A stretch of DNA of 64,000 bases from a candidate division WOR-3 bacterium (lineage in GTDB: Bacteria; Hydrothermota; Hydrothermia; LBFQ01). How positions within the stretch are numbered: the first letter of the stretch is position 1; every line of letters begins with the position of its first letter. Below, in pieces: positions 36,001-42,000 of the stretch. Location of the stretch: the NCBI GenBank assembly GCA_039802605.1, contig JBDRWW010000001.1:256001-320000 (forward strand), written 5' to 3'. Position numbers: made by a program.

Positions 36001-39000
36001 CCACGAGGGAACCTTCCTTTGCATCCCCAAACTTACCTTCATATATCTCTTTTGCTATTTTTAGCTCCTCTGGAATTCCCGTTATTTGAAAGTTGGGGAG
36101 TTTAACACCGTTAGGGATATAGGCAATATAGCCGTATTGCGGAATGTATTCGTATATTTTCACACCCCTGTTTGCAAGACCCAATGCATCCGCATTTTCA
36201 CCAACGGGCTTAACAATCGCCCAATACGATAAAACCATTAACATCAACGGGTATTATATCCCCGTTGGGTTTATTTGTGGGAAATACTGGGGGTGGAGGG
36301 GTTTCTACCCATGCTGACCGATTAGAGTATCAACTATCCTTTTTTCGGCATAAGGTTCAAAGTATTGGGAGAGCTTGGATATATATCTTTCGGAATTTTT
36401 GAGCAATTTTTCAAGGATTTCAACCACTTTGGCAATATTTGTATCCCTTTCCAAAAGCATCTCCGCGGCACCAAAATTATATACATCCATTGCATTAAAT
36501 ACCTGATGACCCCCTGCATAAGAATATGGGATAAACAAAGCGGGTTTTTTAAAATAGCATATTTCACCTATGGAACTCACACCCGCACGGGATATTATGA
36601 CATCCGCCGCCGAGTAAAATGGGGATATGTCCTTTAAAAACTTTACAAATTTGTAATTCTTACCTTCGGCGTCTTCACCCCTTTTCCCCACTATCCCCAA
36701 AATGAAAAACTTATTTAAATCGGCCAAGTTTTTTGCAATTTCGTTTAGGATTTTTGAACCCTGACTACCACCTATTATTCCGACTACCGGCAACTTTGTA
36801 TCAATTCCCAAAACTTTATGGGCATGTTCCCTTTCATAAACCTCCAACTTCCTAACGGGTATTCCAACAAAGATACCCTTTGAAAAGTATTTAACCGCGC
36901 TCCTGAAAGCGCAAAAAACACCCCTTGAAAACACCGATAATACTTTATTGGATTTTCCAGCAACGGCATCCCCTTCGAAGAGGTAATAGGGTTTATTGTT
37001 GATTATGGCGTTTATCATAGGAGGTAATTGCGGATAACCCCCAAAACCCAACAAAACATCTCCCTCCACGACGGGATCAAAGGTTTGAAAAATCCCTTTT
37101 AAAATTGCGTTTAAATTCCTTAATTTTATTTCACCTGCGGAGAATTCCAAAAAACTCTCCTTTATGGGGAAATCAACCTTTAAACCCCCAAGAAGTAAAA
37201 CCTTAGATATTTTTCTCCTGTCCAATTCGGCCGATACGGATAGTGCGGGGGATATATGCCCTCCGGTGCCGCCGGAAACCAAAACGACCTTCATTTCTCC
37301 CCAAAAATTAAGCCCTCAACATGTTTCCAAGCCTCGTTTATCACCCCTTCAACACTCTGATTTCCGTTTATAACCTTTATCCTCTTTTTAGCCCTCCTTG
37401 CCAATGCCAAATATCCATACCTAACCCTTTCAAAGAATTCCAGGCCAAGCTTCTCGTAATAATCAAAATCTTTTGTTCTCTTTAACCTTTCCAAGGCGAT
37501 CTTTGGGTCTATGTCTATAAGGAGGGTTAGGTCGGGCTTCAACTTCATACTCGCTATTTTGTTTAAACGGGTTATCAGGTAATACTCCAACCCTTTACCA
37601 AAAACCTGGTATGCAAAGGTTGAATCCGAATACCTGTCGCTTATAACTATTTTCCCTTCCCTCAGCGCAGGTATTATTTTCCTCTTAGTGTGGTCATACC
37701 TTGAAGAAAGTAAAGCGAAAACTTCCGCCAAAGGCTCCCTCGCTATGGGTTTTGATAAGACCTTTCTTATTTCCTCCGCGAAATCCGTCCCACCCGGTTC
37801 CCTTGTTATAACTATTCTTTCGGGTTTTACCCCCCTTTGAAGTAATCTCTCCCTTAATCCCTCAATTAAAGAGCTTTTGCCGCTACCGTCAATGCCCTCA
37901 ACGGTTATAAACTTTCCCCATCTACCCAAAGTTTAAAGTGCCAAAATCCCGAGAATAAACAGGGCACCAACAACAAGCCACAACGCGTATGTTCTGACGG
38001 AACCCGTTTGCAATTTCCTAAATAGGGAACCAAATGCGTAAGATATCCAAGCCAAGGCATTAATGGTACCGTCAATCAAAATCCTATCAACGAGTAGGAA
38101 CAATATCCACTTTGAAATGAAGTTCAAACCCTTAACAAAAACAAAGTAATAAATCTCATCCACCCAATACCTGTTATACAGCACAACATAAACGGGTTTG
38201 AAAACCTTAGCCATAACGACGGGAATACTCGGGGAAAGTACATACATAAAGTAGGCCAACAAAATTCCCAGAACGCCGGCGGTTATACCGAGAAGCATGG
38301 GCAAGGATGTATGGGATATGTGGAAGTGTTCGGGTAATACGAATGCATCCTTAAAGAGTTTTGCCCACAAGCTGTGCTCACCTCCCAAACCGACAAAACC
38401 GGCAACTATTGAACCCATTGCCAAAATTCCCATAGGTATAAGCATTATAGGGGGACTTTCATGGGCGTGTTCGTAAAGGTGATGATCCCTAGGTTTCCCA
38501 AAGAAAACCATAAAAAACATCCGAAACATGTAGAAAGCGGTTAAAAATGCGGTGATGACCAAAAGCCAAAAGACAAAGGGGAATTCCTGGGTTGCCAAAA
38601 GAATTTCGTCCTTACTGAAAAAGCCGGCAAAAGGAGGGATACCCGCAAGGGCCAAGCCCCCTATCGCCATAAACAAACCCGTCCATGGGAGTTTTTTCCA
38701 AAGCCCTCCCATCCTCTGAATATCCAATACATCGTGTAATGCATGCATTACGGAACCGGCGGTTAAGAACAACAGGGCTTTAAAGAAGGCGTGTGTGTAT
38801 AGGTGGAAAACCCCCGCGGAATACCCAAACATACCCGCAGCCGAAAACATGTAGCCCAACTGTGATATGGTTGAAAAGGCGAGGATCCTCTTTAAGTCGT
38901 TATTTACAAGGGCCATAGTTGCGGCAAAGAAGGCGGTTAAGGCCCCTATTATAGCCACCATTTCGGGGGATGATAGACCAAAAAGTATGGGGACATCCTT

Positions 39001-42000
39001 AACGGATGAGTATAAAAACGATGTCCTCGCCACGAGATATACGCCGGCCGTTACCATAGTTGCGGCGTGTATTAATGCCGAAACCGGTGTTGGACCCTCC
39101 ATGGCATCCGGCAACCAAACATAAAGGGGGATCTGGGCCGATTTACCGGTTGCCGCCACAAAAAACAGCAAGCCCGCTAATGCCAAAGAAGATGCCAATG
39201 TTTCTTTATTTTGCAAAACAAAGTTATTAACCTCCGTATATTTTAGCGTCCCAAAGAGGGCAAATATTAAGAACATACCCAATAAAAACCCCGCATCCCC
39301 AATTCTATTAACCACAAAGGCCTTCATACCGGCCTGACGGGGTGCATCCCTAAAATACCAGAACCCTATTAAAAGGTAAGAGGCCAAACCGACACCTTCC
39401 CAACCCACAAATGTAACCGGGAATGAGTTTCCCAAAACCAAAACCAGCATAAAGAACACGAACATATTTAAATAGGAGAAATACCTCCAATAACCCTCAT
39501 CGTGCTCCATATAGCCTATGGAATAAAGGTGTATCCAAAGGGATACGAATGTTACAACGAATAGCATTATGCCCGCAAGGGGATCAAGTAGATAACCCAC
39601 GGTAATGTTTAGGTCTCCGGCGAACATCCATGTGTATAGGTCTTTTTCAACGGTAAGACCCCCGAATAGGGTTTGGTACGCGAGATAACCCCCGGTAAGG
39701 GTGGAGATCAAAAGCATAAGGGTGGCTATCCATCCCGGAAGTTTGCCGAGTTTTCTACCGAATATTCCGTTAATCAAAAACCCAAAAAAGGGCGCACTAA
39801 CGGTGGTAATAACGAGAATATCCACGGTATTCATGAACGGATATTCTAAGCCCGAAAAACGATTATTGGGTTCGGTATGCATTTAATTCAACCTTAAAAT
39901 AAATTCTTATGCTTATACTGACGGCTTATATAACTTTTGCAAGTAGGTATGGAAACGGCAATGAGGAGCCCTACTCAATGGTTAGAATATCCGAAGGCTA
40001 TGCGATTTTCGGGCAAACCAATTCGTTTTCCGGGGGTGGACTGGGATACGGCGACTTATTTTTGATAAAAGTTGATACTATGGGAAATCTTCTCTGGAAC
40101 AGGGTTTACGGTAGATACATAAGTCCTTCCACACCACGAGAGGATTATGCCACTTGGATGATAGGAACATCGGATGGTGGTTTTTTGATGTTGGGTTATA
40201 CGGGTGTCGACCCCTCGCCTTCCGATAGTATGCACCTTTTTATGATAAAAACAAATTCTCTTGGGACAGTATCCTGGGCAAAAAGAATAGGTGTTAATCC
40301 AATTGCCGTTGGAGAAATTGATAAGGCTTGGAGTGCTGTGGAGGATACGGGTGGATATATTCTCGCCGGACAAACAAACACATCACCGGGTGCAGACTTT
40401 GATGCAATAGTTTTAAAAGTGGCTTCGGATGGGAGTGTTATAAGGTGGCAAAAGCGTTTGGGTAGGTTTAAGTTTGGAACCGATACGGTTCTGGCACAGC
40501 TCATGTTTGACATAGCAAAAGGACCGGACGGAAACTATATTTTGGTTGGAAGGGTTGAGGACAGTTTAACAACCCTCCCTTCGGGAGACCCGGAAGATTG
40601 GGATATTTATGCGGTAAAGATTAGACCCAATGGGGATACTGTATGGACTAAAAGGTATAGGGGGCAGCCAACGCGCACATTTGTATCGGGGAATAGAGAA
40701 AGCGCCATAGGTTTGACCATGCTACCATCGGGAAATTTTGTAGTCGTTGGATACGCCAACACTTGGGAAAGTCCATCAAACAATCCGGCTTATAGGGATA
40801 TGCTGGTTATGAAGATAAGGGGAACGGATGGGGCGGTGCTGTGGGCAAAAAGGGTCGTAAGCAATGGAACATACGACCTTTTCAGAAACGCGTATTACTC
40901 AAACGGATATGTTTTCCTAAGCGGTGAGCTAAACGGCGATGCGGTTTTAATAAAGATGGATACATTGGGTAATCTCATATGGGCTAAGAGGTTTTCAACA
41001 CCTTCAACGGATATAGGGAGATATGCCTTTCCAACAAACATAAATGGACAACAACATGTGGTGTTTTTACTATCGTCAGGTGGGTATGCTATTTTGATTC
41101 AATTGGATAGCAGTGGAAATTATTTAAGACCACCTCTTTGCGGATATTTAACGACAATAAGCCCTACCATTAGCAATGTTAGCCTTTATGCAATACCCAC
41201 AAGGGATAGCGTTTACAACCTCTCGTTTTCTATAAACGACGCATCCGTGGCAACCACGAATGGAATAAACTCCAACAACCTTTGCCCCCTTAACGGCGAT
41301 TACGAACTCGTTGTAGGGGAGAGGGAAAGTTGCAAGGATGCAATTGTTGTAAAATCTTCCAAGGGTGGTTTAAAATTGGATGTTTATAAGGCCGGAGATT
41401 ATGAAATAAGGGTTTATGATGCGAGCGGGAGGTCGGTTAGGGAATTTAACGGTTATATGGGTTTGGGAGTTTATACCTTAAATGTTCATAGAGGGCTGTT
41501 CTTCGTAGAGATAATAAAGGACGATAAGAGTTTGGGGATATTTAAAGCGGTAATAATGTGATCATCTAACCACCACCTTATAAACCCTACCGCCTTCTTT
41601 TACAAAATAAATACCCCTTTTCAGTTGCACAAATCCCTTTCCTTTGAAAACCCTTCTGCCATCCACAGAATAGATTTCACCGCTTAGATAAACCCCGTAT
41701 TTTGATGAATAAAATCCCATCGCAACCCCCTTTTCATTCTCAACATAGGATAACACCGGGCATATTGGGTTTGTGGTGTAAAACAACCTTAAATAAAGGG
41801 TTGCGGAATCCCCGGGTGAAAGGGTATAAGGTCCTGAACCGATCATAGCCGACCAATCGCTTACGGTATCTGGTGGAAAGGATATATCACCCCTTAAAAG
41901 GAGAAACTTTACGCTATCGTCCATTATCTCAAACCAGCTTGCGTTTTTTATAAAAGAAATGTTTGAAAGCGGGTTCAAAGCCTGCAAACCTATATAACCG

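Follow-up and report, generated by a model that had tools for sequence, protein, structure and literature searches.

In G000, a candidate division WOR-3 bacterium, the genes of complex I, which normally form a single long operon and are a standard example of a conserved one, are dispersed over 19 loci, most of them headed by a compact promoter. We estimate at roughly two in three the probability that a neutral ratchet, combining gene shuffling with cheap 30-bp start cassettes, dismantled the operon of an intact complex I.

The complex I genes of G000

Searches with E. coli NuoA-N as queries returned 20 nuo genes at 19 loci with J-K as the sole surviving pair, as claimed in the preliminary description, although the loci lie on ten contigs and not nine. 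The NuoA-N set of the 14-subunit NDH-1 is complete and full length, and nuoA, B, C, D, H and I are each present in two copies. In pairwise alignments with the E. coli proteins both sets keep the charged axis of L, M, N, K and H, the quinone-site His/Tyr/Asp of D and the Fe-S cysteines of B and I and, judged by gene content and residues, the predicted enzyme is intact. Scattered ndh genes occur in cyanobacteria, and the nuo sets of Aquifex are duplicated and clustered. The known complex I outside one operon has all 14 core subunits, as does G000, but G000 differs in having 19 loci for 20 genes, one pair left and a K-L-M-N arm that is split too; J/K lie directly upstream of nuoL in 75 of 77 assessable loci of other bacteria. 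PMC4453560 treats nuo subunit genes as co-localised when fewer than 10 other genes lie between any two, and by that rule G000 has no nuo operon.

Other machinery is split likewise. The A/V-ATPase occupies six loci (I-K-E, A, B, C, D and F), and sdhA, B and C of succinate dehydrogenase lie apart, both as previously described; the initial candidate for ATPase D was a wrong match and was replaced through a family search. The break-up extends to sucC/sucD, thrS/infC/rplT and 12 cell-division and cell-wall genes, while ribosomal-protein blocks and one cytochrome oxidase operon are still joined. To the idea that assembly or binning created the scatter, out of pieces from several genomes or wrong contig joins, we give virtually no credence. 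The assembly does consist of 23 contigs, often ending in repeats, and a foreign nuo cluster (B-C-D-H-I-J-K-L-M, 34-46% identity) does occur in G011, which is 7% contaminated; however, G000 (90% complete) has a contamination of 0.01%, every nuo gene lies at least 4.2 kb from the nearest contig end, the neighbours are identical in independent genomes of two genera and each piece carries its own start signal. For nuoL the artefact is refuted, contigs of public runs spanning both of its ends.

The nuoL locus lies in the window, the whole 64,000-nt stretch analysed (Table 1). NuoL retains E144, R175, K229, H254, K342 and K399, and its start at 39834 is consistent with the N-termini in G003, G007 and G010. 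The predicted promoter scores 21.4 bits with a held-out matrix, a Shine-Dalgarno (SD) site is absent from it, and DNA similarity of the region to G001, G003, G004 and G009 stops at 39857. In G003, G007 and G010 tmk follows nuoL as well, and the nuoL-tmk junction is covered without difference by a contig from an RNA-library run. Of two raw-read RNA runs, each sampled to about 3%, no read fell on window positions 21500-41400. The divergent gene is arranged in the same way in G002 and is not kept as a neighbour beyond the closest relative; an apparent rearrangement of G002 at the nuoL promoter proved to be two overlapping contig ends. At nuoI1 the -10 hexamer includes the stop codon of the upstream panD.

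Table 1. Features in the window (positions 256,001 to 320,000 of contig JBDRWW010000001.1, numbered from its first letter).
Feature	Position	Strand	Details
tRNA-Arg(TCT) and TTG-started 58-aa frame	6297..6548	+	frame 1 nt past discriminator; weakest tRNA-led example
nuoI1 (second-set NuoI)	25478..25997	+	start 25491; -10 hexamer 25478-25483; 25.2 bits
S8 protease gene, next shuffling unit	34094..36244	-	own promoter-led start, 21.3 bits; block edge in G003 and G004
murG-like glycosyltransferase, third gene of nuoL unit	36305..37294	-	4-nt overlap with tmk; top hit with E. coli MurG as query; TIGR01133 197 bits (cut-off 250 not reached)
tmk (dTMP kinase), nuoL passenger	37291..37929	-	TIGR00041 over cut-off; TTG start; 3 nt past nuoL stop; no own promoter
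nuoL, antiporter-like subunit L of complex I, head of transcription unit	37933..39834	-	633 aa; PRK06590 701 bits (cut-off 556); TIGR01974 692 bits (cut-off 407)
Predicted nuoL promoter	39835..39854	-	C at 39854 (six nt before hexamer); TAGAAT 39848-39843; 8-nt spacer to ATG
Divergent gene, beta-propeller-like, secretion-tail-like end	39889..41561	+	550 aa; own -10 box 39895-39900
tRNA-His promoter and gene	45881..45977	+	C at 45881; hexamer 45887-45892; tRNA 45906-45977, CCA not encoded
asd, tRNA-led gene	45980..46954	+	TTG start 2 nt past tRNA-His discriminator

Promoter-led starts

The claim that 16 of the 19 nuo loci start 7-10 nt behind their own -10 box holds: with a matrix trained without the nuo genes and a spacer of 7-10 nt, 16 of the 20 genes score 14.7-25.2 bits. 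The other four are H1 and A2, which follow tRNAs (the two such loci already described), C1, which stands behind another gene with a purine-rich upstream sequence, and K. At a threshold of 6 bits and by an identical procedure for both classes, 582 of 1628 genes in G000 (36%) are promoter-led, against 2 of 994 mock starts inside genes (0.2%). The share among nuo genes thus exceeds that of the genome (p 7e-5), and their promoter scores are higher and more even (median 20.3, SD 2.6, against 16.1, SD 4.6, for the others), matrix score being assumed to represent promoter strength. An SD-like site precedes 3 of the 582 promoter-led genes, compared with 154 of 333 closely spaced downstream genes, and is absent from the 16 promoter-led nuo loci.

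Read from sequence, the start signal fits into about 30 bp: an A-rich stretch, C at -18, the -10 box, a short pyrimidine run and the start codon. The distance from hexamer to start peaks at 8-9 nt (215 and 159 of 582), and there is no -35 element: over the stretch from 35 to 17 nt ahead of the hexamer, no position carries more than 0.05 bit. Counting from position 7 past the hexamer, the first purine is that of the start codon in 341 of 582 cases (170 expected), and 47 leadered promoters carry the same pyrimidine run. A purine is also conserved at position 5; it could be the true transcript start, giving leaders of 2-6 nt.

Leaderless genes led by a -10 box are described for Deinococcus-Thermus and Actinobacteria in passages of PMC12340547 and PMC3160421, which share with G000 a TANNNT box directly before the start of roughly one gene in three, the absence of an SD site and an inverse correlation between -10-led and operon-internal genes. 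The Deinococcus-Thermus type, in those passages, has a spacer of 6-7 nt, and only G000 has the near-invariant C at -18 and core respiratory subunits as users; the same passages do not link leaderless starts to the dismantling of conserved operons.

The C at -18 (0.98), which follows A/T-rich positions, is specific to the family of G000. It is matched by a change in the beta' zipper, where a residue that is Arg in E. coli and in 22 of 22 other genomes is Lys in all eight family genomes, a correlation resting on one event. PMC3173786 ascribes recognition of -10/Z-element promoters to the beta' zipper and names a Tyr-Arg pair as the contact, this Arg being the residue replaced by Lys in the family. 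Both promoter types lack a -35 signal and favour particular bases between -22 and -18, but the Z-element described there is a loose AACCT, which the single C of G000 does not reproduce. A sigma70 change as cause was discarded, regions 2.4, 3.0 and 4.2 looking ordinary; the sigma70 tree excludes the G038 row (wrong protein).

Units, breakpoints and relatives

The class reshuffles its gene order heavily, and the pieces that move are whole transcription units. With unit edges placed before promoter-led genes or at divergent or convergent boundaries, 58 of 85 junctions inside units are kept in G003, G007 and G010 against 3 of 70 at unit edges, and the DNA blocks common to G000 and G001, G003 and G004 stop at such edges. 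The nuo loci are usually the predicted heads of units with unrelated passengers, e.g. nuoL-tmk-murG, rather than single-gene transcripts; the passengers of nuoL, B1 and N are retained in all three relatives examined, and the upstream neighbours differ.

Breaks had been placed at promoter-led starts, and the direction of this effect was reproduced, but its size is about half and not 83%: counted on partial stretches of genomes other than those used before, the second gene is promoter-led in 28 of 58 broken and 1 of 61 kept pairs within the family, and in 105 of 221 broken and 0 of 43 kept pairs outside it. In about half of the broken pairs the gene now stands behind another gene and not behind a promoter. 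Recombination between look-alike promoters was rejected as a driver, only 34 of 582 sharing an exact 20-mer. Where nuo genes are still contiguous, in G012, G016, G013, G017 and G027, the blocks showed no internal promoter, so the order of promoter first and break second is unsupported in these five genomes.

The break-up was also held to be specific to the family, which is true only of its last steps (A|B, K|L, L|M and M|N). The wider claim is not confirmed: subunit-by-subunit checks show a split ATPase in four families, and nuoD, G and H are already apart in the sister family. In six of nine families searched, ATPase A lies away from B, and G017, G027 and G024 too have scattered ATPase subunits. 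G024 has almost no promoter-led starts, its atpA and atpB being SD-led, and promoter-led starts are therefore not required for break-up. nuoB and nuoD are apart in all seven sister-family genomes; L, M and N are joined in five of these, M-N in the other two, and all three are apart within the family, in line with the preliminary description. Different nuo junctions are broken in sister lineages: one sister genus has J|K broken and K-L kept (5/5), the opposite of the family of G000. A graded series runs from two nuo blocks in f5, by way of at least six pieces in f2, to 19 loci, and the family marks the far end of a drift in operon break-up that extends over the class. The promoter-led share roughly tracks fragmentation (0.24-0.35 in the family, 0.14-0.25 in the sister family, 0-0.10 elsewhere) in relatives of which 60-397 kb apiece was covered, in many cases the surroundings of nuo and ATPase genes; an apparently low share in genus g3 (0.03 on 34 kb) became 0.14-0.17 on 318 kb.

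These data bear on a reading in which rearrangement pressure broke the operons anyway and promoter-led leaderless starts were the survivors' repair, without easing the breaks. The ATPase scattered in an SD-led family, the partial splitting of the first-set nuo genes in f3, f8 and f10, where promoter-led starts are few, the intact nuo blocks without internal promoters and the complete lack of promoter-led second genes among the 43 ancestral kept pairs all favour it. The most fragmented lineages, however, are the richest in promoter-led genes, and present-day shuffling falls almost wholly at unit edges; we rate this reading as unlikely. It differs from the ratchet solely in the order of events, and both may act. 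Low synteny is also shared with Epsilonproteobacteria, where PMC3847290 reports genome reshuffling with promoter turnover and a five-gene operon cut into two units by a -10 box in place of an SD site; leaderless genes there number about 20, compared with about 580 in G000, where the units then move apart.

We consider it quite improbable that the split was adaptive, allowing separate regulation of two Q-module sets with one membrane arm. Genus g1 and the sister family do keep two sets of A, B, D and H with one J, K, L, M and N, and key residues are kept in both sets, but genus g2 with one nuo set is equally scattered, both sets are under the same plain promoter type and the splitting reaches the ATPase, sdh and the unrelated genes listed above.

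tRNA-led genes

The two tRNA-led nuo genes had been taken as exceptions; they belong instead to a genome-wide system, which is new relative to the preliminary description. Behind 31 of 42 tRNA genes of G000 a start codon (23 TTG) lies 0-8 nt past the discriminator base, in frame with the downstream gene in 28 of 31. Among the comparison tRNAs (9 from the rest of the family, 22 from the sister family and 24 outside), none of the 24 outside the order has such a start. CCA is encoded in none of 46 tRNA genes, and 41 of 46 have their own promoter 8-15 nt upstream. For asd, the profiles match from residue 1-2 of the TTG start and a homolog aligns residue 1 to residue 1; starting from the next ATG would remove the nucleotide-binding glycine motif. 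The 58-aa frame behind tRNA-Arg(TCT) has no Pfam match. A fixed-offset tRNA-plus-TTG pattern, which is blind to frame, separated 28 genomes poorly (2-5 matches in the family against 0-3 elsewhere).

Several other origins were considered and rejected: loss of RNase P giving leaderless tRNAs (RNase P RNA and the protein subunit are present), a promoter in the tRNA T-arm for the downstream gene (negative matrix scores, spacing too long) and an SD site carried by the 3' strand of the tRNA (the majority of ends being C-rich). In G000, at 90% completeness, the RNase Z model TIGR02651 has no match, E. coli RNase BN as query finds none, and RNase E/G, RNase J and RNase PH were not found; TIGR02651 has no match over cut-off in five of five genomes. 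Candidates for the cutting enzyme in G000 are a beta-CASP-like protein (C8:20125-21429) and RNase Y (C4:112817-114328). The arrangement resembles mitochondrial tRNA punctuation in that coding frames abut the 3' end of CCA-less tRNAs with little or no leader. It is unlike it in being bacterial, in the promoter of each tRNA, in the mostly UUG starts and in the missing RNase Z, with cleavage presumed; the long mitochondrial precursor is cut at tRNAs on both sides of each mRNA, and the separate tRNA promoters of G000 do not fit such a precursor.

A model for the dismantling

In the ratchet that we favour, the compact start signal would give an mRNA that is leaderless or has a leader of at most 5 nt, and where such a signal arose or landed before an operon-internal gene a break there would cost nothing and would stay. 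Complex I subunits presumably need high and similar rates of synthesis, and surviving breaks would therefore be those that left a gene behind a near-consensus promoter (16 loci) or a tRNA (2 loci). tRNA-led genes would share the transcript that begins at the tRNA promoter and be released when the tRNA 3' end is cut, yielding a near-leaderless UUG or AUG mRNA. The enzyme would be assembled post-translationally from separately made subunits, the two Q-module sets (A, B, C, D, H and I) probably using one common J-K-L-M-N arm. For a broader picture we hold the odds to be even: organelle-like expression in this order, with most core genes as portable near-leaderless cassettes, about three quarters of the free-ended tRNA genes of G000 acting as cleavable leaders from which UUG-started mRNAs are released through 3' processing by some nuclease that is not RNase Z, an operon-less complex I (two forms, one pumping arm) and a polymerase retuned to C at -18.

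It has long been asked whether co-regulation, stoichiometry or co-translational assembly is what preserves operons, and for this question the lineage is a natural operon knock-out; its scattered nuo genes with their own promoters suggest that a large membrane machine may be built without shared transcripts, and the graded series points to real, testable constraints. The tRNA-led genes would be a bacterial counterpart of mitochondrial tRNA punctuation and would imply efficient UUG initiation with a 0-5 nt leader and a further 3' processing nuclease. Gene callers place promoter-led and tRNA-led starts wrongly, and cluster-based annotation would miss or mis-score the complex I of G000.

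Scattered complex I genes and their controls

The genome under study (G000), whose stretch C1:256001-320000 is the window, totals 1.65 Mb on 23 contigs, with 90% completeness and 0.01% contamination; to judge by its V-type ATPase, secreted-protein tails and genome size, its lineage is probably WOR-3. It was searched with the E. coli subunits as queries, on gene calls from a hexamer-based finder and no standard program (about 1,620 genes, 95% coding). The coordinates singled out in the preliminary description are those of nuoL, and it was right about 20 nuo genes at 19 loci, which are spread over ten contigs and not the nine it gave. 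Subunits A, B, C, D, H and I have two copies each and E, F, G, J, K, L, M and N a single one; for every gene the nearest contig end is 4.2 kb or more away. Based on neighbourhoods in relatives, the genes were assigned to two Q-module sets, set 1 (A1-B1-C1-D1-H1-I2 with E, F, G and J-N) and set 2 (A2-B2-C2-D2-H2-I1), and both keep the charged, quinone-site and Fe-S residues. Set 2's own membrane arm persists in families f3, f8 and f10 and is absent from the genome's own family (f1) and its sister family (f2); genus g2 of f1 has lost set 2.

For a control, 80 nuoL loci from other bacteria were examined: J/K is the immediate upstream neighbour in 75 of 77 assessable cases, and M/N is found on the downstream side in at least 66 of 72, the six exceptions all having hits to M and N within the locus. 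An assembly artefact is excluded by the same neighbours in independent genomes together with public-run contigs spanning both nuoL ends, one run of which may be the assembly's own source. The scattered complex I is real and extreme. For the E. coli nuo operon, the order of the genes is reportedly non-essential.

Table. Locations of features discussed in the text (contigs of G000 unless stated)
Feature	Location	Remark
nuoL	window 37933-39834 (-)	
panD stop codon/nuoI1 -10 box	window 25478-25483	
tRNA-His-asd	window 45881-46954	tRNA-led
Uma2 (PF05685) array	window 47658-49859	four genes in tandem
CCA-type nucleotidyltransferase	C1:44181-45551	
CCA-type nucleotidyltransferase	C2:23817-24974	
IF3	C2:259127-259606	
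tRNA-Val before nuoH1	C3:87991	anticodon GAC
spc fragment	C6:63978-77140	S14-S8-L6-L18-S5-L30
Metallo-beta-lactamase (beta-CASP-like) protein	C8:20125-21429	434 aa
Protein-only RNase P-like (PIN_5) gene	G017 C5:74424-74846	

Promoter-type start signals

Without any gene calls, TA[ATG]AAT followed by ATG shows a spacing peak at 8-9 nt (269 and 218 versus about 80). With a promoter matrix whose training set left out the nuo genes, a signal was marked at 582 of 1628 genes versus 2 of 994 mock starts, and 16 of the 20 nuo genes score 14.7-25.2 bits, in agreement with the start signals proposed earlier for these loci. The layout runs from an A-rich stretch through a C placed six nt 5' of the hexamer (0.98) and the hexamer itself to ACCC-purine-pyrimidines; no signal stands out in the -35 region, and an SD-like site accompanies just 3 of the 582 promoter-led genes. 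Transcripts and cleavage are inferred from DNA throughout. Transcription probably begins at the start codon rather than at the purine in position 5, since leadered promoters (n=47) also have the pyrimidine run before a purine at 9-11, and since the first purine met from position 7 onward is that of the start codon in 341 of 582 genes versus 170 expected; with either start the predicted leader would leave no room for an SD site.

In four f1 genomes, 91-100% of sites have the C at -18, compared with 0-17% in f2, f3, f4, f5 and f10. Sigma70 looks ordinary, but the beta' zipper residue is lysine in 8/8 f1 genomes and arginine in 22/22 others; according to PMC3173786, the zipper Tyr-Arg pair acts via the -22 to -18 spacer and can substitute for -35 recognition. 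As this match amounts to one evolutionary event, we treat it as a lead. Separately, a 13-residue insertion N-terminal to the zipper is common to f1, f2 and f5, and the RNA polymerase of the eight f1 genomes is on a long branch, with the rpoC lid and rudder strongly diverged (L181 on C6; L182-L188). The putative nuoI1 promoter is built out of the end of the preceding gene, panD, whose stop codon forms part of the -10 box.

Transcription units as the moving pieces

Operons remain, with 685 predicted units of 2.4 genes on average, 4-nt overlaps being common, and their content is mixed (e.g. nuoL-tmk-murG). In G003, G007 and G010 the gene downstream of nuoL, nuoB1 and nuoN is identical to that in G000 and the upstream gene is different every time; over the available stretches of these relatives, 58 of 85 adjacent pairs within units are kept, versus 3 of 70 junctions before a promoter-led gene or at divergent or convergent borders. 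Blocks of DNA shared within the genus stop at unit edges, that of nuoL three nt past the conserved C. Of 264 co-directional pairs compared with other families, 43 are kept; a promoter-led second gene occurs in 105 of the 221 broken pairs and in 0 of the 43 kept ones.

The nuo genes are unit heads above chance, with higher and more even promoter scores. Heads of units are also found at five of the six ATPase loci and in sdhA, B, C and sucC, D. Still joined and SD-led are tuf-S10-L24, the L11-rpoBC block, the alpha block and rpsB-tsf; the three-gene cytochrome oxidase operon is also still joined. The best hits of 12 dcw genes fall at 12 places (that of ftsA is weak). The spc fragment now lies behind rpoC, and L5 and L15 head their own units elsewhere.

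The likeliest cause would be a neutral ratchet of unit shuffling, which 30-bp start cassettes would make cheap and the outcomes of which would be filtered by a need for strong, even expression. Uma2-type paralogs, found at about 20 places besides the tandem array, make up much of the 56 kb of repeated DNA, are often at contig ends, and are possible substrates for shuffling.

Break-up in other families

The comparison covered f1 (g1, g2), f2 (g3, g4; same order) and eight further families of the class; in a tree of RpoD, RpoC and RpoB parts f1, on a long branch, groups with f2 (0.98) and next with f5. The break-up had been described as specific to the family, and this does not hold, as the ATPase and part of nuo are split in other families too. 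ATPase A-B is adjacent only in G020, G023 and G029 among 30 genomes, C, D, E and F are scattered also in G017, G027 and G024, and A and B of G024 are SD-led. Complex I forms two blocks in f5 (A-F, G-N), and in f3, f8 and f10 set 2 is largely whole with set 1 in four or five pieces. In f2, A-B and K-L are each kept in 7/7 and B and D are apart in 7/7; g3 retains H-I-J-K-L-M-N and g4 has J|K broken in 5/5. J-K is kept in 12/12 f1 genomes, with A|B and K|L apart in 12/12; G001 is 57% complete, and the counts set aside the intact nuo cluster of G011:C15 (L011; 34-46% identity to G000), a contig most likely foreign to its bin. Promoter-led starts per gene show an excess of 0.24-0.35 in f1, 0.23-0.25 in g4, 0.14-0.17 in g3, 0.10 in f5 and f10 and 0-0.06 in f3, f4, f7, f8 and f9, from non-random samples of 60-397 kb per relative and non-independent kin. 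The process is class-wide, with this family as its end-point and not its sole case; equally split genomes could be among the data sets behind PMC4453560 and PMC12361115. Further background came from PMC3847290, PMC12542636, PMC12340547, PMC3160421, PMC3879981, PMC3144371 and PMC12285271.

tRNA-led genes and RNA processing

None of the 46 tRNA genes encodes CCA, and 41 have their own promoter, of the same type as promoter-led genes, 8-15 nt upstream. Exclusion of four tRNAs with another tRNA next downstream leaves 42; in 31 of these, a start codon (23 TTG, 8 ATG) lies 0-8 nt past the discriminator and begins a frame of at least 55 codons (commonest offsets 1 and 3), compared with 9.5% of random positions, a lenient control as trailers are T-rich. 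In a stricter test, on 31 tRNAs that have both a start codon in this range and a called gene behind it, 28 of the start codons share that gene's frame (p 2e-7). These N-termini are, from alignments, predicted to be native: profile matches of asd begin at residue 1-2, and in four further proteins residue 1 aligns with residue 1 of homologs. We take the products to include MurA, PurB, AhcY, L28 and L33. The two nuo loci noted earlier at tRNA 3' ends are nuoH1 and nuoA2, both with a tRNA conserved in relatives (tRNA-Val and TTG in G007 and G010, tRNA-Asn in G002). The tRNA-Val anticodon is CAC in G007 and G010 (L076, L084), which suggests an in-place switch. In the available stretches, tRNA-led starts number 3/9 in other f1 genomes, 11/22 in f2 and 0/24 outside the order.

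Because a folded tRNA one nt 5' of the start codon should block the ribosome, we infer cleavage at the tRNA 3' end. The proteins present include RNase P, RNase Y and PNPase, a pair of CCA-type nucleotidyltransferases, and a single beta-CASP-like protein, which is a candidate tRNA 3' nuclease; RNase Z, RNase E/G, RNase J and RNase PH were not found in this 90% complete genome. Of the two nucleotidyltransferases, one may add CC and the other A, as in Aquifex. This system, used by two nuo genes, is the least expected part and is without precedent in the literature searched: the open literature, with subscription papers mostly outside it, gave no report of systematic tRNA-led genes in bacteria or of complex I split into single genes, and for WOR-3 none of scattered genes or of leaderless ones. 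For P. acnes, PMC3848588 gives 3% leaderless UUG and an absent tRNase Z.

Searches of G017 (L198) found no RNase P RNA or protein, and this genome has a protein-only RNase P-like gene; G020 (L189, L196, L197) has both kinds. IF3 of G000 keeps the conserved tyrosine and differs from E. coli in several C-domain arginines, differences that might bear on UUG initiation.
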